Source of the DNA: Candidatus Woesebacteria bacterium
GTDB lineage: Bacteria > Patescibacteriota > Microgenomatia > UBA1400 > MFAQ01
Assembly: GCA_035389185.1 (NCBI GenBank)
Contig: DAOORK010000001.1
Span: 65,006-129,005, forward strand
Direction of reading: 5' to 3'
Length of the DNA: 64,000 bases
A program made the translations under genes and the position numbers. Numbering within the stretch: the stretch's first letter is position 1; each line of letters begins with the position of its first letter. Shown piece after piece: positions 26,073-64,000 of the stretch. The notes under the pieces are model-generated. The model was not told the origin of the DNA and did not search any database. It saw only the letters and a program-made list of their open reading frames with translations.

Positions 26073-27020
26073 GTGGCTAAGAAAAAACCAGAAGACCTGA
26101 CTCTAAGAAGATTGATTCGTAGGTATTTAAGTTTTATTGAGGTGGAAAAAAACTATAGTAAGTTCACTATTCGGAACTACTCCCACTATCTTAAGATGTT
26201 TAGTGATTGGTTTGAGAAACATTATGAGCAAGAATATATTGAGAAGCTGACTGATGACATGGTACGTAGATACAGATTATTTTTAACCCACTTTGAAGAT
26301 GTCCACGGCAAGCGACTCTCCCCTACTACACAAAGTTATTATGTGATTGCCTTGCGAGCATTTCTGAAGTATTGTGCTCGAAAAGGCATAAAAACACTTT
26401 CACCGGAAAAAGTGGATTTACCAAAAAGCGAAAACCACAATATAAAGTTTTTGGAAAGAGAACAGGTTGAGAGACTGCTGATGGCCCCAGATACATCGAC
26501 GATGTCTGGGTTACGAGATAGAACTATTTTGGAAGTGTTATTTTCTACAGGTCTTCGTGTTTCTGAGTTAGCGAAACTTGATATAGATAAAATTGATCTT
26601 AAAGCTCGTGAGTTTGGTATTATCGGAAAAGGTCGTCGGGCACGGGTTGTATTTCTTACTGATAGAGCTGCCGGCTGGTTGGATAAATGGCTTTCTACCA
26701 GATCGGATCCCTTTAGAGCTTTGTGGATTAGGATACCAAAAAACGGAGAGTGGGATCCGGCTATGGGAGGTGAAAAAGCTCGCTTGTCTATTCGTGGAGT
26801 TCAAAGAATTGTGGAGAGATACAGAAGAGCTGCTGGTATATCTATGAGTGTAAGCCCTCATACTCTTAGACACTCGTTTGCTACAACCTTACTTCAGCAA
26901 GGTGCGGACTTGAGAAGTGTTCAAGAAATGCTGGGACATAAGAATGTGGCGACAACCCAGATATATACTCATGTGACGAATCCTCAACTAAAACAGATTC
27001 ACGATAAATATCTGAAATAA
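26073..27020 (+). CDS. Tyrosine site-specific recombinase, XerC/XerD-like
   Basis: C-terminal catalytic box HTLRHSFATTLLQQGADLRSVQEMLGHKNVATTQIYTHV. Core-binding N-terminal domain. GTG start. Confidence 0.85.
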   Translation: MAKKKPEDLTLRRLIRRYLSFIEVEKNYSKFTIRNYSHYLKMFSDWFEKHYEQEYIEKLTDDMVRRYRLFLTHFEDVHGKRLSPTTQSYYVIALRAFLKYCARKGIKTLSPEKVDLPKSENHNIKFLEREQVERLLMAPDTSTMSGLRDRTILEVLFSTGLRVSELAKLDIDKIDLKAREFGIIGKGRRARVVFLTDRAAGWLDKWLSTRSDPFRALWIRIPKNGEWDPAMGGEKARLSIRGVQRIVERYRRAAGISMSVSPHTLRHSFATTLLQQGADLRSVQEMLGHKNVATTQIYTHVTNPQLKQIHDKYLK

Positions 27021-56471: not shown

Positions 56472-56672
56472 TTAATTATGGAGCATTTGTTTAATTTTGG
56501 TGGCGATTCTACCAGTGACTTCTTGGTAGTGTCGATAGCGCCTGATGAGCTTTTTGCTTTTTTTGCGGCGAAGGTGGCGCATGTAAGGACTGCGACGTAA
56601 GACTTTACCTGTTCCGGTAATCTTAAATCGTTTCATGACAATTTTTCTGGTCTTTTGTTTAGTTTTAGTCAT
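56472..56672 (-). CDS. rpmI: 50S ribosomal protein L35
   Basis: MTKTKQKTRKIVMKRFKITGTGKV. Sits in the conserved infC-rpmI-rplT order. Confidence 0.85.
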   Translation of the reverse strand: MTKTKQKTRKIVMKRFKITGTGKVLRRSPYMRHLRRKKSKKLIRRYRHYQEVTGRIATKIKQMLHN

Positions 56673-56681
56673 AGACTTTGA

Positions 56682-57188
56682 TTATTTTTTGGGTTTCACT
56701 TGAGCGATGAGAAGTTTACCTAGATACTTTGGCTCTTCTACAACCGTGGAGACTTCGGTCAAACCGTTGAGGGCTTGGTTCATAACTTTTTCTCCGAATT
56801 CCTTCTTGGTGATTTCCCTGCCACGGAATTTTACCACTAACTTGACTCTATCGCCATCCTTTAAAAATTTTTCAGCCTGTCTTACCTTAACACCAAGATC
56901 ATTTTCGGCCATAAAGGGAGTTAGTCTAACCTCTTTTGTTTCTTGGCCACCTTTATTGGTACCGGCTTTTTCCTTTTTGTCCTCTTGATATTTGAATTTT
57001 TGAAAATCAATGATTTTAACAATTGGAGGTTTTGCTTTTTCGGTTATTTCGACCAAATCCAGTCCTAAATTAGCTGCCCTTGTAAGAGCTTCCTGTGTCG
57101 ACATGATACCAAGCTGTTTGTTTTCTTGGTCTATGACCCGAACTTCGGGATATCGAATGTTTTGATTGATACGATAGTATTTGTTCAC
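56682..57188 (-). CDS. infC: Translation initiation factor IF-3
   Basis: IRYPEVRVIDQENKQLGIMSTQEALTRAANLGLDLVEI matches the IF-3 N-domain. 168 aa. Confidence 0.85.
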   Translation of the reverse strand: MNKYYRINQNIRYPEVRVIDQENKQLGIMSTQEALTRAANLGLDLVEITEKAKPPIVKIIDFQKFKYQEDKKEKAGTNKGGQETKEVRLTPFMAENDLGVKVRQAEKFLKDGDRVKLVVKFRGREITKKEFGEKVMNQALNGLTEVSTVVEEPKYLGKLLIAQVKPKK

Positions 57189-57234
57189 TTGGTTGTATTT
57201 TACTATATTTTAGGTTTGATTTATGAAGTAAAAA

Positions 57235-57256
57235 AATCTCTCCCTTTGGGGAGAGA
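57235..57256. terminator. Bidirectional terminator hairpin (stem identical to the 15108 hairpin)
   Basis: Hairpin atctctcc-ctttgg-ggagagat with A-run and T-run flanks. Confidence 0.55.
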
Positions 57257-57265
57257 TTTTTGTAG

Positions 57266-57339
57266 TGGGCCCGACTGGACTCGAACCAGTGACCTCTGCA
57301 ATGTCAATGCAGCGCTCTAGCCAGCTGAGCTACGAGCCC
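57266..57339 (-). tRNA. tRNA-Val (anticodon GAC)
   Basis: Reverse complement is GGGCTCGTAGCTCAGCTGGCTAGAGCGCTGCATTGACATTGCAGAGGTCACTGGTTCGAGTCCAGTCGGGCCCA. Anticodon loop TTGACAT. CCA not encoded. Confidence 0.8.
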
Positions 57340-57360
57340 GACGAGTGATATTTTAGCATA

Positions 57361-57918
57361 TTAGCCTACAGAAGTGGCGATGCTACGCTCATTATTCTGG
57401 GTATACGATGACCCCTTTTTGTTGGCCATATTCCAGTAAGCACCCATTTTTTTGGAGCGGCTATTATAGATTTCCAGCCAACTATTAGCCTTTCTCATGT
57501 TTAATCCAAAATTGCGAATCATTTCTTTGATGTGTTCAAGAAAGTTTATTTGGTACTCACCATACTCGACAACCGGCACCTCGATGGCTTTTTTGAGATT
57601 GATATCTAGTCTTTTCACCTGTTTGCTCATCTCTTTGAGCTGGACTCTTATTTCTTCGATTCTTTTTTCTGTTTGAGTTTCTTTAAAAGAGAAAACCCTG
57701 TTCCATTCTTCGTTTCGATGTGAGTAAAATTGCTCGACGCGTTTTTTTTCGATCTCTTTTTTTGCTTGAATTTCGGCAAAGATATTTTTCCCTGGTAGTT
57801 TTTCTGGACCATCTGAATTACCGGAAGCTTTCGATTGTGAACTACGAAGAGCCTCCAAAAAGTTTTGGATTTTTATGTTACCTGAGTTTGATGGTTGCCC
57901 TGTCCAGTTATTACTCAT
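57361..57918 (-). CDS. Hypothetical coiled-coil protein
   Basis: 185 aa, Lys/Glu-rich central region. No motif. Confidence 0.45.
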   Translation of the reverse strand: MSNNWTGQPSNSGNIKIQNFLEALRSSQSKASGNSDGPEKLPGKNIFAEIQAKKEIEKKRVEQFYSHRNEEWNRVFSFKETQTEKRIEEIRVQLKEMSKQVKRLDINLKKAIEVPVVEYGEYQINFLEHIKEMIRNFGLNMRKANSWLEIYNSRSKKMGAYWNMANKKGSSYTQNNERSIATSVG

Positions 57919-57928
57919 TTATCTAAAC

Positions 57929-58723
57929 TTAACAAAGTTTTATAAGTAATTCAACAGTTTTGCGTCGGTCCATGATGGATTTTAGCTGACCAAGTTGTGT
58001 CTCAGGAACGCCGCCAACCTCAGCTAGCTTTTTGAGTTCTTTAATATCGGTGTCGATTTTTTCTATTTTGGCAATTTCGAGAAGAATTAGATCAAGTTTG
58101 ATTGATTCTTCGGCCTTTTTGGCATACTCGGTTTTTATCTCATCCAAGGTCTTGTTGACTGCTTTGAAGTAATTTTCCAAGGTAAGATTAAGACTTTTTG
58201 CTTGACTGGCGATTCTTTCCAAGCTGTAGTTAACTTCTTCATCAATTACCGGTTTGGGAACGTCTACTTGAATACTTTTTAACAGATTGTCGTAGATTTT
58301 TTCTATCTTTTTTTCCTCGGTATCTTTTTTATCTACCTTGGTGGCGGAAACAATTTTTGAATAGTCTTGAATTTTTATTTCAGGATATAAAGGGAGGGAG
58401 ATGGTAATTTTCCAACCAGTGGTTGATTTGGAGTCAATGTTTTCTAAAACTGGTCTACCTAGAAGCCTGTATTTATTCTCCTTGATAGAAATGTCGATGA
58501 TTTCATTGAGAATATGACCAAGGATATGATTGCTTAGCTTGTCTGGGTCGACATGTTCAGCGGCAATTGATCGAGGAGCTTTTCCTTGTCGGAAACCTTT
58601 GACGGTAACGTCTTTAATTAGTTCATCAATAGCATGTTCTTTTTGGGCGTCAACTTCTTTTGAGTTAAGGATTGCCTCAACTTGAGCGGTGTTGTTTTTG
58701 ATTTTTTTGACGGTTAGTTTCAT
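57929..58723 (-). CDS. Trigger factor-like chaperone (short form, N-terminal ribosome-binding domain, no PPIase domain evident)
   Basis: MKLTVKK...VEAIL...VKGFRQGKAPRSIAAEH contains the GFRxGxxP trigger-factor signature. Only 264 aa. Confidence 0.55.
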   Translation of the reverse strand: MKLTVKKIKNNTAQVEAILNSKEVDAQKEHAIDELIKDVTVKGFRQGKAPRSIAAEHVDPDKLSNHILGHILNEIIDISIKENKYRLLGRPVLENIDSKSTTGWKITISLPLYPEIKIQDYSKIVSATKVDKKDTEEKKIEKIYDNLLKSIQVDVPKPVIDEEVNYSLERIASQAKSLNLTLENYFKAVNKTLDEIKTEYAKKAEESIKLDLILLEIAKIEKIDTDIKELKKLAEVGGVPETQLGQLKSIMDRRKTVELLIKLC

Positions 58724-58893
58724 ATTTGATTGACATTTCTAGCTGCTAATTTTAGCATATCGTAGTTTATAAATCCTTTTTTTTTTGAACTAAATATTTT
58801 ATGATTGTTGCGATAATCTGAATTGTCAAAGGATCAATCGGATGGATACATTTAAGATTTGACATTAAAACTACCGAAGTTATAATTGCGAGA

Positions 58894-59361
58894 ATGAACG
58901 AATTTGAAAGAAATAACATTGAAAAAAGTGAGGAAGAGGCCTTAGTCTTAGAGAAGGCTGACATTTTTGTGTTGTGGCAATACGAGCTTGATAGAAAAAG
59001 TGAAAACTTTGACCCAGATGTAGCAATGGTGGGATTTGTGGCCACGGTCGAATCAAAAGATGTTACTGTTGAAGGTATTCTTTCGAGAAAAGACAATGTC
59101 TTGGTTGCTTACACTTCGTATTCTGAATTTCTCAATATTCTAAAAAATCCAAAAGTTTTAAGAATTGAGATGTGCTGGGATATAGAACTTCTTCTCTCAA
59201 ACACATCAGATGAAATAGTGATTACCGTTCCTAGTCCGGGGCCGGTAGACGATGAATGGGATAGTCCAAGTTATGATAGTTTTTGGAGTCCTGTTGAAAA
59301 CGAACTCCAAAGAAAGATTAAACGACTCGAAAGTGTCGGAAAGAAGGTAATAATTTTATAA
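58894..59361 (+). CDS. Hypothetical protein
   Basis: Balanced composition. TATAAT lies just upstream of the ATG. The overlapping minus-strand ORF is Ser-rich low complexity. Confidence 0.4.
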   Translation: MNEFERNNIEKSEEEALVLEKADIFVLWQYELDRKSENFDPDVAMVGFVATVESKDVTVEGILSRKDNVLVAYTSYSEFLNILKNPKVLRIEMCWDIELLLSNTSDEIVITVPSPGPVDDEWDSPSYDSFWSPVENELQRKIKRLESVGKKVIIL

Positions 59362-59369
59362 CGAATTTG

Positions 59370-59544
59370 TGCCGAGAAGAGGGGTTGGTCACTCTAGCTA
59401 ATTTCATTAGGACTTGCCTCTCGATAAATTTCTGCTGAAATTTCCTCAAGGCGGGCCTCAGCGCCAGTCGCGCTTCCGGCTCTTCAAGTCCTCTTTACAA
59501 AGTCAAAATAAATATCATGCCACAAGGGCATGATATTAATTTAG
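59370..59544 (-). repeat. tRNA-associated hairpin-rich element A. It lies downstream of tRNA-Leu(TAG) and is bounded by a 14-nt direct repeat of the tRNA 3' end.
   Basis: Direct repeat gtgccgagaagagg at 59370-59383 and 59544-59557. Outer stem aggacttg/caagtcct (59409-16 / 59485-92). Hairpins AAATTTC-TGCT-GAAATTT (59426-43) and GGCG-N8-CGCC (59450-65). Terminator-like hairpin with ACAAG loop at 59514-34. Confidence 0.5.
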
Positions 59545-59625
59545 TGCCGAGAAGAGGACTTGAACCTCCATGGGTTTCCCCGCTAGCTCCTAAAGCTAGT
59601 GCGTCTACCATTTCGCCATCTCGGC
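59545..59625 (-). tRNA. tRNA-Leu (anticodon TAG), type II
   Basis: Reverse complement is GCCGAGATGGCGAAATGGTAGACGCACTAGCTTTAGGAGCTAGCGGGGAAACCCATGGAGGTTCAAGTCCTCTTCTCGGCA. Anticodon loop TTTAGGA. Confidence 0.8.
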
Positions 59626-59658
59626 AGGCATTACGATCTGGGATATTTTACCATTAAG

Positions 59659-60273
59659 CTAGTCGAGCTGGTCGAAGAAAGTGGAAACACCGTTTGCCCA
59701 CGAGCCGTCGGAAGGAGGTGTGTAGGTTCTCATAACTTCCATGGGATTTTTGTAGTGTTTTCCATCTAAAAATATTTTGGTGAACTGAGGAGCAATTCTT
59801 CTTAAAGCGTCTTCATAACTACTGAATCGGGTTACCTTGTCGCCGTATATCCCCCACCCCCAACAATTAAAGGAGTTATCGGGAATATGTTTACAAAGAC
59901 TTGATTCTTGTTGGGCTATGGCTACTAACCAACGATAGTCAAAGTTGTATTGATCTGAGAGTTCCACAATTAGACCGGAGTATGGTTCTAGAGGTGATGT
60001 GTATTGATGAAGATATTGACGAATAATTTCCGGACGAGCGTCGGCTGTCTTGATAGAGGTTTTGATTTGCTGGTCAAAGGAAGGTAAGGCGGCAAAAACA
60101 ACAGGTTCTTCGGCGTTTGAGGCGAGATAGTTTTCTTGATTTGTGTGTACTCCAAGAATAAGCTCCTGTTTACCCTGGGAGATATCGAGTAAGTTGGTGC
60201 TTAAAGATAGGGTGACTTTGGAAAGTACCAAAAATAAAGGCAACAAAATCAGACATCTTTTTACTTTGGTCAC
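59659..60273 (-). CDS. Secreted protein with lysozyme-like/peptidoglycan hydrolase-like region (tentative)
   Basis: Signal peptide. LVAIAQQESSL...NCWGWG resembles glucosaminidase/lytic-transglycosylase catalytic motifs. Confidence 0.4.
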   Translation of the reverse strand: MTKVKRCLILLPLFLVLSKVTLSLSTNLLDISQGKQELILGVHTNQENYLASNAEEPVVFAALPSFDQQIKTSIKTADARPEIIRQYLHQYTSPLEPYSGLIVELSDQYNFDYRWLVAIAQQESSLCKHIPDNSFNCWGWGIYGDKVTRFSSYEDALRRIAPQFTKIFLDGKHYKNPMEVMRTYTPPSDGSWANGVSTFFDQLD

Positions 60274-60310
60274 AAAATAATCGTGTCAGAACTGGAGAGA
60301 GATGTCAAGT

Positions 60311-60460
60311 TTTGTGCTCCAAGAGGGATTTGCCTCTCGATAAAACTCTGCTGAGTTTTTCTCAAGGCGGGGCTCGACGCCAGTCGCGTCTGTGCCTTTC
60401 AAATCCCTCACAATAACAAATTTAGGATATTCAACCGCAAGGGTTGGAATATCCTATTTG
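60311..60460 (-). repeat. tRNA-associated hairpin-rich element B. It lies downstream of tRNA-Arg, is bounded by a 22-nt direct repeat of the tRNA 3' end, and is homologous to element A.
   Basis: Direct repeat tttgtgctccaagagggatttg at 60311-32 and 60457-78. Outer stem gagggattt/aaatccctc. Core shares CTCTCGATAAA..CTGCTGA..CTCAAGGCGGG..CGCCAGTCGCG with element A, with compensatory changes in the helices. Hairpin with GCAAG loop at 60424-55. Confidence 0.5.
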
Positions 60461-60534
60461 TGCTCCAAGAGGGATTTGAACCCCCAACCTGCGGCTTCGA
60501 AGGCCGACGCTCTATCCAGTTGAGCTATTGGAGC
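60461..60534 (-). tRNA. tRNA-Arg (anticodon TCG)
   Basis: Reverse complement is GCTCCAATAGCTCAACTGGATAGAGCGTCGGCCTTCGAAGCCGCAGGTTGGGGGTTCAAATCCCTCTTGGAGCA. Anticodon loop CTTCGAA. There is one U-C mismatch at the top of the anticodon stem. Confidence 0.75.
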
Positions 60535-60587
60535 AATGCCTATATTTTAGCTCATTTGTGCGTTTAAATGGTAAAATACTCATGTTC

Positions 60588-60661
60588 GGGTCAGTAGCTC
60601 AGTCGGTTAGAGCACCTGCCTCTTAAGCAGGGTGTCGCGGGTTCGAGTCCCGCCTGACCCA
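60588..60661 (+). tRNA. tRNA-Lys (anticodon CTT)
   Basis: GGGTCAGTAGCTCAGTCGGTTAGAGCACCTGCCTCTTAAGCAGGGTGTCGCGGGTTCGAGTCCCGCCTGACCCA. Anticodon loop CTCTTAA. Confidence 0.85.
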
Positions 60662-60691
60662 CAAATAGATATCGTATATATTAAAGATATA

Positions 60692-61921
60692 GTGAAAAGA
60701 CTGTTAGTTTTTACATATGCACCGGCCGGACTAGGTCACCTAAGAGTAACCGATGCTCTTGTGGATAGCAGACCTAAAGATCTTTCCTATTTGATGCTTG
60801 GTTCTTATGATCGATTCATTACCAGTTTTCATCGTTTTTTTAGTGTAAATCCGATTGGGAAGTTTATTTTTACATTGAATCAGTACGGTTTCCTTGAAGA
60901 TATTGTGACGGCAATTTATAGAAGGATTCTCATTATGACAAGTGGGCAAATGTATCGACAGATGAAAAGCATTGTTCAGTCAAAACAAGACATTGATGAA
61001 ATATGGGTAATTGCAACTCATTTTGGTATGGCCCATCAGCTTGGAGCGGTAAAAGATCGTTTGGCAAAAGATACAGGAAAGAAAATTAAACTTATTGTCC
61101 AGGTGACGGATGACACCACCCAGCACATTTGGTGTATTCGAGGGGCTGACCTGACGTTTGTCCCGAGCTTACTGACAAAAGAAAAATTGTTAAAGTACGC
61201 AAGTCGTCACAAAATTGATTCGAAATATGAGGTAATCCCCTATCCTCTATGCCCGATATTGACTGCAAAACTTGACGTGAGTAAAGGACGTGACCAGGCT
61301 TTAGGGAAAAGTAAACAAAAAATCAATGTGGCTGTACCGATTTCTGGGGCATCCGTAGGTTTGAATTACGCAACGAAATTAATAACTGAGCTTTGTAAAA
61401 AGAGTGACCGATTTAAGTTTTGGGTTTTGGTAAAAAAATCAGTGTATACGGATCACTTTATAAATGAACTATCTAAACTTACCGGAGTGAGTTTGATTAC
61501 CGGAAGAAATGATAATGAGATGATTAGTCTTTACGAGTTGTTGTATCAGGAAAACTTGATCCACTTGGAAATAACGAAACCGAGTGAACAGTCTTTTAAG
61601 GCAATTTTGCCTCCTGCCTGCGTGGGAGGATCTATTTTACTTTTTACTGCACCCGTAGGTCGTCAGGAATATGAGAACATGGAGTTTCTTAAAAGGCACG
61701 GGCTGATGCCTGGTTATCTGGACACAACTCCAAGAGCGATAAGCTTGCCGGAAAATCCTTTGAAAGCGGCCGATTTTGTGATTCAGAGTTTAGAGACAGG
61801 GTTATTTTTAAGAATGAGTTTACCTTCCTTCCAATTTTCTGAGGCTTCAATGAAGTCAGGTGAGGTTGGTTCTTCGGGGTCAGAAGATTTTTGGAAAAAG
61901 GTTGAGAGTCTTCTCGGTTGA
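60692..61921 (+). CDS. GT-B glycosyltransferase, MGDG-synthase/UgtP-like (GT28 family)
   Basis: N-terminal KRLLVFTYAPAGLGHLRVTDALVD resembles the MGDG_synth/MurG N-domain. C-terminal GGSILLFTAPVGRQEYENMEFL is a GT-B C-domain. GTG start at 60692 is chosen because the upstream part of the track ORF overlaps tRNA-Lys. Confidence 0.55.
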   Translation: MKRLLVFTYAPAGLGHLRVTDALVDSRPKDLSYLMLGSYDRFITSFHRFFSVNPIGKFIFTLNQYGFLEDIVTAIYRRILIMTSGQMYRQMKSIVQSKQDIDEIWVIATHFGMAHQLGAVKDRLAKDTGKKIKLIVQVTDDTTQHIWCIRGADLTFVPSLLTKEKLLKYASRHKIDSKYEVIPYPLCPILTAKLDVSKGRDQALGKSKQKINVAVPISGASVGLNYATKLITELCKKSDRFKFWVLVKKSVYTDHFINELSKLTGVSLITGRNDNEMISLYELLYQENLIHLEITKPSEQSFKAILPPACVGGSILLFTAPVGRQEYENMEFLKRHGLMPGYLDTTPRAISLPENPLKAADFVIQSLETGLFLRMSLPSFQFSEASMKSGEVGSSGSEDFWKKVESLLG

Positions 61922-61952
61922 AGTTTTTGATTATCGGTGTTAACGTTAGTGT

Positions 61953-62636
61953 GTGGCAGACACTAAAGAATCATATGATGTAAGTAAATTCGAACATCCT
62001 TCGGTAACGGTTGATGTTCTTTTTTTTACGATTAAAGACGATAAGCTTCAAGTTTTACTTATAAAAAGAGCTCAATGGCCTTATGAAGGTTCGTGGGCAA
62101 TACCGGGAGGTTTTGTAAAAATGGAAGAAGACCTGGATACTGCGGCCAGGAGAGAGATATCCGAGGAGTGCGGTGTAGATATCCCCTATTTGGAACAGCT
62201 GTACACTTTTGGTGACCCAAAGCGAGATCCTAGAACTCGCGTAATTACTGTTGCCTACTACGCACTGGCTCCTTATAAGGAAATAAAAAACATACAGTCT
62301 GATGAAGTTGTCGAGGCGAAGTTTTTTCCTGTTGAAAGCTTACCCAAAATGGCCTTTGATCATAAACACATTATTGAAGTCGGTTTTGGCAGATTACGGA
62401 AGAAAATTGGATATAGCAATATTGCTTTCGGATTACTGCCGGAGTATTTTTCTCTTTCCGATATTCAAAAAACTTATGAAGTTATTAATGGTCGATCTCT
62501 GGATAAACGTAACTTTAGGAAATGGATGCTGGGTTCTGGTTTGCTTGAATCTACCTCAAAAAAATCAGTTGGGGTGGCACACCGACCAGCGATGCTTTAT
62601 CGATTTGCAAAGAGAGACGTAGTATTTTTGAACTAA
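61953..62636 (+). CDS. NUDIX hydrolase with C-terminal winged-helix-like domain (NrtR-like)
   Basis: Nudix box GGFVKMEEDLDTAARREISEECGV. ~90-aa C-terminal extension. GTG start. Terminator at 62641-62656. Confidence 0.65.
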   Translation: MADTKESYDVSKFEHPSVTVDVLFFTIKDDKLQVLLIKRAQWPYEGSWAIPGGFVKMEEDLDTAARREISEECGVDIPYLEQLYTFGDPKRDPRTRVITVAYYALAPYKEIKNIQSDEVVEAKFFPVESLPKMAFDHKHIIEVGFGRLRKKIGYSNIAFGLLPEYFSLSDIQKTYEVINGRSLDKRNFRKWMLGSGLLESTSKKSVGVAHRPAMLYRFAKRDVVFLN

Positions 62637-62640
62637 AAAA

Positions 62641-62656
62641 GTTACCCGAAGGTAAC
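62641..62656. terminator. Bidirectional terminator hairpin
   Basis: Hairpin gttacc-cgaa-ggtaac flanked by an A-run and TTTTAAG. Confidence 0.55.
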
Positions 62657-62678
62657 TTTTAAGTTGTATGTTATCGAC

Positions 62679-63137
62679 TCAATTCAGCTGAGGCGACGAG
62701 GCGTAGGCTCGGGCTGCAAACTGAATTGTAAAGAAGAACTGACCGTCTTGTTCGACAATGAATTCATCGTTGAGCAAGTTATTAAACGGGAAGAAAGAGC
62801 GATTGCGGGCCTTCAGGTTAAAGACGTCAATTTCGTCTTTATTGAAGGGTAGCCAGCCCTTTCCTCGTTCTTGACAAAAACGTACAAGAACGTTTGCCGA
62901 TGCTTCAGTTTCAGAATTACCAAAAGCGTCAAAAAAGTGCATTGAGGTGTCGATATCTTCAGGTTTAATGGGACATCTGACTTGATCATTGATGATATCT
63001 GTCACAAGATCCTCCTTAGAAATATGTTGTAGCCGAATTGTAGCATTAAAAGACAGAAAAGTCAAGCTATAGGATAATATAGATGACGAAGTCCGCCTCT
63101 CGTATTTCGTTTTTTGTCTTAAATAAAAACTCTCCAT
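62679..63137 (-). CDS. Hypothetical protein (start uncertain; alternative Met at 62942)
   Basis: ORF without a convincing RBS at either candidate start. No motif. Confidence 0.3.
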   Translation of the reverse strand: MESFYLRQKTKYERRTSSSILSYSLTFLSFNATIRLQHISKEDLVTDIINDQVRCPIKPEDIDTSMHFFDAFGNSETEASANVLVRFCQERGKGWLPFNKDEIDVFNLKARNRSFFPFNNLLNDEFIVEQDGQFFFTIQFAARAYASSPQLN

Positions 63138-63159
63138 GAAGAAAAGATTTTTAGATTTA

Positions 63160-63313
63160 GGGTGGATGACGGGATTCGGTCACCGATATTTGCTTCGCAA
63201 ATTCGTCGACCCCGGCGTTTGCCGCACGTTACGTGCCGCAAGCCGCCATCCGAGTCCCATTTATTTGTCTCAATAAAACAAAACGCACCACAAGGGTGCA
63301 TTTTATTCTATTG
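63160..63313 (-). repeat. tRNA-associated hairpin-rich element C. It lies downstream of tRNA-His and is bounded by a 19-nt direct repeat of the tRNA 3' end.
   Basis: Direct repeat gggtggatgacgggattcg at 63160-78 and 63313-31. Outer stem gggattcgg/ccgagtccc (63171-79 / 63250-58). CGATA followed by hairpin ATTTGC-TTC-GCAAAT (63187-201). Further hairpins cggc-gttt-gccg and gcacg-tta-cgtgc. ACAAG-loop hairpin at 63285-99. Confidence 0.45.
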
Positions 63314-63388
63314 GGTGGATGACGGGATTCGAACCCGCGATCTCCTCCTCCACAGGGAGGCGCTTTAGCCAGCTAAGCTACATCCACC
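63314..63388 (-). tRNA. tRNA-His (anticodon GTG) with encoded G-1
   Basis: Reverse complement is G-GTGGATGTAGCTTAGCTGGCTAAAGCGCCTCCCTGTGGAGGAGGAGATCGCGGGTTCGAATCCCGTCATCCACC-C. Anticodon loop CTGTGGA. G-1 pairs with C73. Confidence 0.8.
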
Positions 63389-63438
63389 ATATAATTTCGA
63401 ACTTATATATTTTATCATTTGAGGTAAAATATAACCAT

Positions 63439-63512
63439 CGGGGTGTAGCTCAGATGGCTAGAGTACTGCGTTTGGGACGCAGGGGTCGTGAGTTCGAGTC
63501 TCACCACCCCGA
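63439..63512 (+). tRNA. tRNA-Pro (anticodon TGG)
   Basis: CGGGGTGTAGCTCAGATGGCTAGAGTACTGCGTTTGGGACGCAGGGGTCGTGAGTTCGAGTCTCACCACCCCGA. Anticodon loop TTTGGGA. Confidence 0.8.
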
Positions 63513-63519
63513 CAAAAAA

Positions 63520-64000
63520 ATGAAAGACGTTCGATTAATTTCATATCAAAAGAAGTTCAACTATTCGTATTCGTTGGGCGTCTTTCCGACGATTGAGTTG
63601 ATGGAAAATAGACCAGAGAAGGTTATCAAAATTATCTTTCATCCAAAAGGAAAAGAGAACAAGGGGGTCAAAAAACTAATTTCTTTTGCCACAAGTAAAG
63701 GTGTTCGTACAGAGTGGAGTGAGGGTTTGATCAAAAAAATAGGCGGAAATGACAATACCTATGCTGTTGGAGTGTTTAATAAGTATCAAGAAGAGGTTGA
63801 ACCGAGAGTGAATCACCTGGTGCTGGCAAATCCCGAAGATGGTGGCAATTTGGGCACGATGATAAGAACTGCCTTGGCATTTGGAATCAAGGATATTGCC
63901 GTGATTCGACCCGCAGTAGATATTTTTGATCCAAAGGTGGTCAGAGCCTCGATGGGATCGATTTTTAAGGTCAATATTGAGTATTTTGATGATTTTACGG
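63520..64000 (+). CDS. SpoU/TrmH-class RNA 2'-O-methyltransferase (3' end outside the window). Not in the supplied ORF track.
   Basis: ATG at 63520. Frame is open to the window end. HLVLANPEDGGNLGTMIRTALAFGIKDIAVI matches the SPOUT class IV methyltransferase motifs. Confidence 0.7.
   Translation, partial: MKDVRLISYQKKFNYSYSLGVFPTIELMENRPEKVIKIIFHPKGKENKGVKKLISFATSKGVRTEWSEGLIKKIGGNDNTYAVGVFNKYQEEVEPRVNHLVLANPEDGGNLGTMIRTALAFGIKDIAVIRPAVDIFDPKVVRASMGSIFKVNIEYFDDFT

Follow-up and report, generated by a model that had tools for sequence, protein, structure and literature searches.

What occupies the DNA directly behind the tRNA genes of Candidatus Woesebacteria bacterium? The question is raised by a 64,000-nt stretch of contig DAOORK010000001.1 (assembly GCA_035389185.1, forward-strand positions 65,006 to 129,005; hereafter the window, whose own numbering is used below), in which a sequence-only reading had described hairpin-rich elements downstream of tRNA-Leu(tag) and tRNA-Arg(tcg), bounded by repeats of the tRNA 3' ends, and a divergent relative at tRNA-His. 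Two explanations had been offered, miniature integrase-less integrative elements or a previously undescribed structured RNA co-transcribed with the tRNAs. The elements were found to belong to a large, apparently uncatalogued family of folded, RNA-like elements of about 90 nt, spread behind tRNA genes throughout Patescibacteria (candidate phyla radiation, CPR). Its members encode no protein and lie in sense orientation right behind highly expressed genes, namely those for tRNA, transfer-messenger RNA (tmRNA) and, rarely, the proteins RplL and RplK.

The homology of the first two elements was borne out (77% identity over an 84-nt alignment of 59410-59493 with 60326-60409), and the core blocks described as shared occur in the 64 kb at the Leu and Arg sites alone, with none expected by chance according to shuffles. 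Seven tRNA genes were called in the window with ARAGORN. The three that carry elements are on the minus strand and complete upstream of them, and the common order on the tRNA strand is tRNA, a hairpin (x), a', a core of about 70 nt (C) and a direct copy of the tRNA end (a). Each copy in the family may thus be written gene[..a]-x-a'-C-a, where the 3' end of the host gene is repeated in inverted form as a' and in direct form as a; a' and a together close a junction (helix P1), x is often terminator-like, and C folds into two hairpins, P2 and P3. An intron in the T-loop, which would interrupt the gene and have to be removed for function, was considered and rejected, since the window tRNAs are complete upstream of the element.

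The host gene tRNA-Arg(tcg) (60460..60534, Rfam tRNA score 70.1 bits) ends in a proximal repeat made of its last 19 nt and 3 flanking nt (60457-60478). Behind it come hairpin x, delimited from sequence and fold (AGGATATTCCAACC-CTTGC-GGTTGAATATCCT, 60424..60455), which is terminator-like with a weakly T-rich tail and was not called by the terminator scan, and a' (GAGGGATTTG, 60400..60409), the 5' strand of P1 and an exact inverted copy of tRNA positions ~56-65 (CAAATCCCTC). The conserved core (60333..60399), delimited by covariation and by a match to the covariance model (CM) described below (60321-60410, 82.6 bits), has three parts: the junction AAA; P2 at 60371-60396, interrupted by a GNA/GA internal loop and capped by GACUG; and P3, starting at 60368, which contains tandem G·A and a bulged A and is capped by AGCA. 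The distal direct repeat (CAAATCCCTCTTGGAGCACAAA, 60311..60332) provides the 3' strand of P1 together with a copy of the acceptor 3' strand, and empty-site alignment placed the insertion point exactly there. The 22-nt repeat claimed earlier for this locus was confirmed as exact by the repeat finder (22/22, 60311-60332 and 60457-60478).

At tRNA-Leu(tag) (59544..59625, ARAGORN and Rfam; proximal a at 59544-59562) the terminator scan recovered x as an intrinsic-terminator-like hairpin with a T-rich tail (59511..59537). It is followed by a' (AGAGGACTTG, 59485..59494), the inverted copy of the tRNA's CAAGTCCTCT, by a core consisting of junction, P2 (59455-59480) and P3 (59417..59484; CM match 59405-59495, 74 bits), and by a distal repeat in two parts. 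The first of these, a1 (CAAGTCCT, 59409..59416), forms the 3' strand of P1; the second, located by repeat search, is the distal copy of the acceptor 3' strand (CCTCTTCTCGGCAC, 59369..59382). The 14-nt repeat reported here is likewise exact (59369-59382 equals 59544-59557, GTGCCGAGAAGAGG), with coordinates that had been given one base off. The 26-nt spacer between the two parts (59383..59408) holds GTGACC, the usual 3' end of cores in the family, and may tentatively be read from its sequence as the relic of an older tandem or nested copy. The third, divergent copy proposed at tRNA-His (63313..63387) is a genuine member (element 63160..63299; 29.4 bits, E-value 7e-7, CM match 63167-63261 on the minus strand), with x at 63285-63299, terminator-like in the scan, a' at 63250-63258, a core at 63179-63249 in which P2 is longer and P3 carries a GAA loop, and a distal repeat (CGAATCCCGTCATCCACCC) at 63160-63178. 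Repeat lengths in the window are therefore 22 (Arg), 14(+8) (Leu) and 19 nt (His).

In order to find relatives, contigs representing one genome per species were searched with a degenerate core pattern tolerant of the hairpin stems, which matched 117 loci; about 26 of these were chance matches in GC-rich coding sequence of non-CPR genomes and were discarded, and the remaining records were from Patescibacteria. Their titles, some of which are unreliable, include Collier-, Roizman-, Taylor-, Nomura-, Adler-, Kaiser- and Berkelbacteria, WWE3, Paceibacteria and Saccharimonadales. Loci L041, L062, L104, L108 and L114 carry the CPR element under the titles 'uncultured Pseudomonadales', 'Gammaproteobacteria' or 'Pacearchaeota archaeon'; these titles look unreliable. 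L041 and L062 are syntenic with Collierbacteria. An over-strict core pattern (CCGCCTTGAG..TTATCGAGAGGCAA) had no match in genome or viral contigs, and a type-B pattern had none in viral contigs.

A covariance model (R1), built on 88 distinct members, recovered exactly the three copies in the window and 123 further copies in 99 loci of Patescibacteria metagenome-assembled genomes, with a maximum of six per 8 kb, so that the additional copies in related genomes on which the earlier proposal depended do exist. Out of these 126 copies, 100 lie at most 300 nt downstream of a same-strand tRNA or tmRNA gene, where 3.7% would be expected, and their hosts comprise tRNAs of 17 amino-acid specificities and five tmRNA genes. 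A few others are inserted 0-1 nt past the stop codons of rplL (L025:4480-4568, L035:3194-3282) or rplK (L051:2135-2223) and duplicate the last 15-18 nt of the open reading frame (ORF); in these copies the loop of the a/a' hairpin contains the stop codon or borders on it.

A variant layout was seen in Saccharimonadales (L098:7624-7712, L081:177-265, L021, L127 and L053), with UGAGA, an extra hairpin and CGCAAG ahead of the core. There the core is fused to the 5' part of a tRNA pseudogene (up to the T-stem 5' strand), an arrangement confined to these cases, and an intact tRNA gene, of the same kind (tRNA-Glu) in L098, lies just downstream; the layout resembles an insertion in the T-loop.

Scanned with Rfam 15 by E-value, the region 56500-64000 returned tRNAs and sub-threshold chance matches, none of them over the elements, and a scan of 15 element-bearing loci at gathering thresholds returned tRNA, tmRNA and LSU rRNA only. 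The second of the two explanations offered at the outset, a structured RNA new to the catalogues and co-transcribed with the tRNAs, fits this outcome, co-transcription itself being presumed. No description of the element was found in the searchable literature, though one may exist elsewhere; the group I introns reported at anticodon position 35/36 (bioRxiv 10.1101/2025.07.03.662931) are a different element.

Folded singly, the minus-strand sequences of the three window copies form a three-way junction (z-scores of -5.1 for Arg, -3.3 for His and -1.8 for Leu, the last from a segment that included extra 3' flank). The conserved part (~68-75 nt) consists of two hairpins on the sense strand of the host gene: P2, a 3-bp helix followed by a GNA/GA internal loop and a variable hairpin (P2b), and P3, whose lower stem contains a conserved G·U and is followed by a bulged A and an upper stem, usually capped by an AGCA loop. 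Unpaired positions are conserved as well, namely the AAA(G) junction, the GNA/GA loop, a GGG junction, the bulged A and usually the AGCA loop. Divergent copies, the His copy of the window among them, can have P2b and the loops exchanged for others.

The claim that this secondary structure is under selection was upheld by the alignment of the 88 members. Paired cells amounted to 84% against 65% in shuffled alignments, double-change cells to 529 against 192 ± 12 (none of 500 shuffles reached 529), and the covariation score was 0.483 against at most 0.163 for slid partners. Pairing by helix was 96.6% for P2a, 99.3% for P2b and 88.5% for P3, both loops and part of the P2b stem pairs having been fixed by the search pattern. 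In a second alignment of 118 distinct copies (A4), which was fitted to the model and so leans towards the structure, 90% of cells were paired and 810 showed double changes. The lower-P3 wobble (columns 47-75) is GU in 52 and UG in 11 of the 88 members (63/88), and G·U outnumbers A·C by 96 to 20 in P3, so the fold belongs to the tRNA-sense strand, where an RNA produced together with the tRNA would have it. A selected secondary structure therefore exists, and an RNA on the tRNA strand is the preferred reading of it; the conserved part acts as a strand-specific fold and not as a pair of duplex protein-binding arms.

Three helices with compensatory changes had been named by the sequence-only reading. 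Two are real, the outer stem (P1) and the AAAxxTC-loop-GAxxTTT hairpin (upper P3), whereas GGCG-N8-CGCC found no support, with no double changes and two of its four pairs unpaired in most members. The actual third helix is P2, the hairpin through CGCGACTGGCG, which had been listed merely as a shared block. An ordinary intrinsic terminator region was rejected as an explanation: x fits such a region at Leu and His, yet the ~70-nt core beyond it is conserved and covarying across the phylum. Hammerhead, K-turn and group II domain V motifs were considered, and the conserved nucleotides do not fit them.

The closing helix is of a different nature. P1 varies at all nine pairs because both of its strands copy the neighbouring gene, and they consist of a copy and an inverted copy of the T-loop plus the T-stem 3' strand. 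The compensation noted for the outer stem does keep the pairing; being tRNA-derived on both strands, it is a by-product of origin and offers no independent proof of selection. With a tRNA as host, a starts at T-loop position ~54-57, ends 1-6 nt beyond the discriminator and takes in CCA whenever this is encoded in the gene. Of 100 copies, 57 have a distal repeat that agrees with the tail of its own tRNA over 12 nt or more, and in 47 the agreement extends to 17 nt or more; among comparisons with non-cognate tails the figure is 0.2%. Complementarity of a' to its own tail spans 8 nt or more in 57% of copies, as opposed to 7% when the tail is non-cognate. When the proximal and distal repeats are not identical, a' is the better partner of the proximal one 11 times and of the distal one 4 times, and 16 cases are tied. 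The alternative that a' copies the T-stem 5' strand and the T-loop was rejected, as a' shows the complement of the non-palindromic T-loops examined (TTCAAAT, TTCAAGT, TTCGAGT and TTCGACT). In the minimum-free-energy (MFE) fold of the whole Arg precursor, the tRNA body takes the distal copy as its partner and the proximal copy pairs with a', the two copies of a being energetically interchangeable.

CCA added after transcription had been considered as a sign of a mature-tRNA intermediate and was uninformative, proximal and distal copies agreeing on CCA in 44 of 46 cases. Orthologous tRNA genes of Collierbacteria differ among themselves, some encoding the 3' CCA and others not (L010:5881-5957, L011:6609-6694 and L015:5759-5835 compared with the window).

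Long palindromes were observed upstream of the cores in L105, L048, L027, L022 and L082, with loops of 3-4 nt, joining the last ~10 nt of the tRNA or tmRNA and the terminator hairpin to their inverted copy. Their stems are perfect over 27-30 bp in the first four, and of ~36 bp with a 2-nt indel in L082. This perfection suggests templated DNA synthesis and not selection for RNA pairing.

Differences in the presence of the elements were evident when syntenic loci were fetched from relatives. In L007, L010 and L015 tRNA-Arg runs directly into C(A/C)AAACTTGACA...TTCTGACACGATTA, and in the window and L062 the same sequence comes after the distal repeat instead; because the flank of the empty site is the sequence past the distal repeat, the difference is a clean indel of exactly x-a'-core-a. 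Sites of the kind that the sequence-only reading had named as a mark of insertion are thus present at tRNA-Arg, and the tRNA-Leu site is also empty in L007, L010 and L013, again next to the flank found in the window. Elements occupy tRNA-Arg in L004-L006, and tRNA-Lys and tRNA-Leu in L001 and L003, while tRNA-His of L007 is followed by a decayed, internally deleted remnant. In total, L007 has no intact copy at 6 tRNAs, compared with 3 of 7 tRNAs in the window.

Copy number changes in place as well. The close relatives L085 and L097 differ by one versus two tandem units, and L045 carries 3.4 tandem units of a-x-a'-core. The repeated segment may be a, a+x or a+x+a', with exact repeats of ~7 to 61 nt; repeat length was dropped as an age marker, since it does not correlate with similarity to the consensus. 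At rplL of L035 the proximal gene end (AAAATTGAACTAAAATAG) pairs perfectly with a', and the distal copy (AAAGTGGAGTTGAAATAA) differs from it by synonymous or conservative changes only, as is expected if a-x-a'-core was acquired whole from a different lineage and replaced the end already there.

Rearrangements of the host genes were seen in the same comparison. Single tRNA genes (Arg, Leu(tag) and Val) with their own -10 boxes are flipped between syntenic Collierbacteria loci (L001:4250-4324, L004:5614-5695, L015:6624-6705 and L007:7156-7230, compared with window 57265-60534). A short ...CCCCGCA remnant stands beside the CAAAACTTGACA flank in L001, and in L011:5230-5340 a truncated, interrupted 5' fragment of tRNA-Lys lies just upstream of the intact tRNA-Lys, which is also inverted relative to relatives.

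No gene was found to travel with the elements. Clustering of the ORFs within 1.5 kb of the copies gave no recurrent family, the biggest cluster covering four loci of housekeeping genes, and no integrase appeared among them. No reverse transcriptase (RT) was found near any copy in this clustering, the loci having flanks of up to 10 kb and no genome-wide search for one having been made, and no RT domain was found with Pfam among the neighbours of the window copies. The Pfam matches there were a NUDIX/NrtR regulator and, ~33 kb off, a Xer-like recombinase (26073-27020), an ordinary tyrosine recombinase. In 2.9 million viral contigs there was no real copy; a phage origin was rejected, the single match being a chance one in a coding region of 68% GC.

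As to other features of the window, a 155-aa ORF (58894-59361, plus strand) and a 152-aa ORF (62679-63137, minus strand) adjoin the Leu and His distal repeats; neither has a Pfam match or a counterpart at that position in the fetched relatives, and they represent variable DNA beside tRNA 3' ends. Homologues of a 204-aa ORF between the Leu and Arg elements are annotated Candidatus Collierbacteria or Microgenomates, and the window was itself assigned to Candidatus Collierbacteria. A sub-threshold Rfam match to HPnc0260 (57168-57301, plus strand; 43 bits, gathering score 59) overlaps the terminator region of tRNA-Val and the start of infC and is probably due to chance.

How, then, did the elements come to stand where they do? 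The account to which we incline, with modest confidence, is that of a Patescibacteria-wide family of trailer RNA-like elements that are non-autonomous, without a protein gene, and of insertion type. The element would be made as part of the tRNA 3' trailer through read-through of x, and would behave as an insertion-type hitch-hiker lacking means of its own. The transferred unit would be a-x-a'-C, set in front of the resident a; as the incoming unit supplies a copy of the 3' end, the host gene would stay intact. The most economical route would be recombination, with the conserved tRNA gene and the ~20-nt copy serving as homology arms, in a Campbell-type event or a double crossover after DNA uptake, and such homology-based exchange would explain the variable boundaries of the repeats. 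Alternatively, a trans-acting enzyme might read the RNA fold.

Several points weigh against this account. Expression and RNA ends are inference only. Spread by recombination alone would supply no drive and would leave the origin of a' at new targets such as rplL unexplained. The Arg and Leu elements of the window and L062 are orthologous, with site-specific P2 signatures common to both, so that at least these copies are old and vertically inherited; the near-identical cores at tRNA-Lys and tRNA-Arg of L011 may be explained by gene conversion. Presence and absence can result from loss by recombination between repeats as well as from gain, and no strain-level gain was caught among the compared loci. 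Finally, the very high conservation across CPR groups is equally expected of an RNA that benefits its host.

This last consideration leads to the alternative that survives best, a host-functional 3'-trailer RNA, which may be entertained as a lesser possibility. Here C would be a cis-acting module of tRNA, tmRNA and ribosomal-protein transcription units, with a role in processing, stability, termination or regulatory switching, the duplicated a would itself have a function, and a' would pair with either the gene's 3' end or the distal copy, coupling the folding of the core to the folding or release of the upstream RNA. Conservation of sequence and structure across CPR groups is strong, every copy is co-oriented with the highly expressed gene whose 3' end it follows, the two pairings of the Arg precursor are energetically interchangeable, and orthologous copies have persisted between genomes as diverged as the window and L062. 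Against a host function stand the patchy occupancy among close relatives (the difference between L007 and the window given above), the existence of decayed, internally deleted copies and of tandem arrays, the acceptor-strand part of the repeat, which lies outside the fold and is often lost, and the different core subtypes that sister genomes hold at the same tRNA (Leu in the window and in L001).

A bolder idea, to be held about as tentatively as a host function, is a new class of protein-less mobile elements, in which an RNA fold of ~70 nt homes to the 3' ends of tRNAs, tmRNA and abundant mRNAs. The fold would perhaps be catalytic or be recognised by a CPR enzyme, and the closing helix would be built from the target, the inverted copy acting as a guide-like strand and the direct copy remaining as a footprint, so that retargeting would proceed by copying the target and not through protein specificity. 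In a variant of the idea, the fold would be a switch coupling maturation of the upstream tRNA to a signal.

An origin by retrotransposition, in the manner of short interspersed nuclear elements, seems improbable, though worth keeping in view. A released x-a'-C-a RNA would be copied by an RT encoded elsewhere, its 3' tail a annealing to a nicked tRNA gene; staggered nicks would leave the duplication of 9-23 nt, and snap-back of the target's free 3' end would create a' at new targets. Target duplications of variable length, the RNA-sense fold and the long palindromes that take in the gene's 3' end (L105, L048, L027, L022 and the near-perfect L082) are consistent with it, as are the new bases CCTTTG in L025, which lengthen a TTAC/GTAA fold-back already in place in exactly the way predicted by templated snap-back synthesis. 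Yet the absence of an RT near the copies, within the limits of the search described, speaks against it; a' mostly holds T-loop and T-stem without the acceptor strand, where simple snap-back predicts otherwise, and the repeat boundaries sometimes take in x and a'.

Less probable again, and very unlikely in our judgement, is a folded single-stranded DNA recombination site of the integron attC or CTX-phage type, used by a host Xer-like tyrosine recombinase, with the a'/a stem mimicking the duplex tRNA-gene target and C as a structured loop. The order gene[a]-x-a'-C-a would be expected if a dumbbell circle and the chromosomal a exchanged single strands, to judge from the layout, and strand-specific folding and the presence of a Xer-like recombinase in the window agree with this; but the targets are unrelated and share no core site (tRNA T-arms, rplL/rplK ends and trailer hairpins), the repeat boundaries vary, and a conserved wobble and tandem G·A are motifs that point to RNA. 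The first explanation offered by the sequence-only reading, in which the ~150 nt would be the attL and attR arms of an int-less, cis-mobilizable element (CIME) targeted to tRNA genes, has the direct repeat from T-loop to tRNA 3' end in its favour (the classical sublocation for one integrase class, with repeats in the window and, over at least 12 nt, in the 57 of 100 copies mentioned above that are identical to what would be the attB core), and can nevertheless be set aside, given one core family at 17 tRNA specificities, tmRNA and the protein genes rplL and rplK, no integrase or recurrent neighbour within 1.5 kb, no real viral match, and an RNA-type, strand-specific fold with G·U pairs.

The family matters beyond this locus. 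Much of bacterial diversity falls within Patescibacteria, whose non-coding RNAs have hardly been surveyed; here is what appears to be an abundant structured element, present in many candidate groups of the phylum and absent from Rfam. If mobile, it would be a minimal element that spreads without an enzyme of its own; if functional, it would add a CPR-specific layer to the biology of tRNA and tmRNA 3' ends. In practice, the duplicated tRNA ends are easily mistaken for integrase att sites and the borders of genomic islands, and the covariance model can be used as a ready marker for CPR contigs.

Each of the known systems with which the family was compared shares part of its features. Integrative elements, CIMEs and satellite islands likewise show a repeat of the tRNA 3' part from the T-loop on, an intact gene and empty sites; unlike them, the present elements measure ~120-175 bp, have no integrase nearby, use one core for about 20 targets, and combine a conserved, strand-specific covarying fold with an inverted copy of the target. 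REP/BIME, ERIC, RUP, Correia and Rickettsia palindromic elements and other repeats resembling miniature inverted-repeat transposable elements (MITEs) are also non-autonomous, multicopy within a genome and patchy among relatives, and are co-transcribed in 3' regions and fold as RNA, transcription being presumed in the present case. They differ in that the present family has no family-wide terminal inverted repeats, no short fixed target duplication and ends derived from the target, is strictly co-oriented with the 3' ends of stable-RNA genes, and is conserved across many groups of a phylum and not within one genus. A true MITE was rejected on the same grounds: the sole inverted repeat (a'/a) has a different sequence at each locus, in keeping with the host gene beside it, and the direct repeats range over ~7-61 nt with variable boundaries.

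The msr-msd RNA of retrons resembles the elements as a structured non-coding RNA whose fold is closed by 5' and 3' inverted repeats; the present core is much shorter, its closing repeats copy the neighbouring gene, and retron RNA was rejected because no RT gene adjoins the copies. CTX-phage attP(+) and integron attC sites share two inverted, target-like sequences around a spacer of ~90 nt and the integrated order of target, cargo, inverted site, spacer and target, whereas here there is no common recombinase core, the motifs are of RNA type (G·U, tandem G·A) and there is essentially no cargo. Class C group II introns are structured RNAs located just after terminator hairpins, as these elements are, but the latter are about ten times smaller, lack domain V and other intron signatures in Rfam scans, and duplicate their target. 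To our knowledge, no counterpart has been described of a closing helix whose two strands repeat the host gene's 3' end, one directly and the other inverted. The family is rated as a small, structured, non-autonomous element; integrative elements, REP/MITE-like repeats and retron RNAs each have a defining feature that it lacks.

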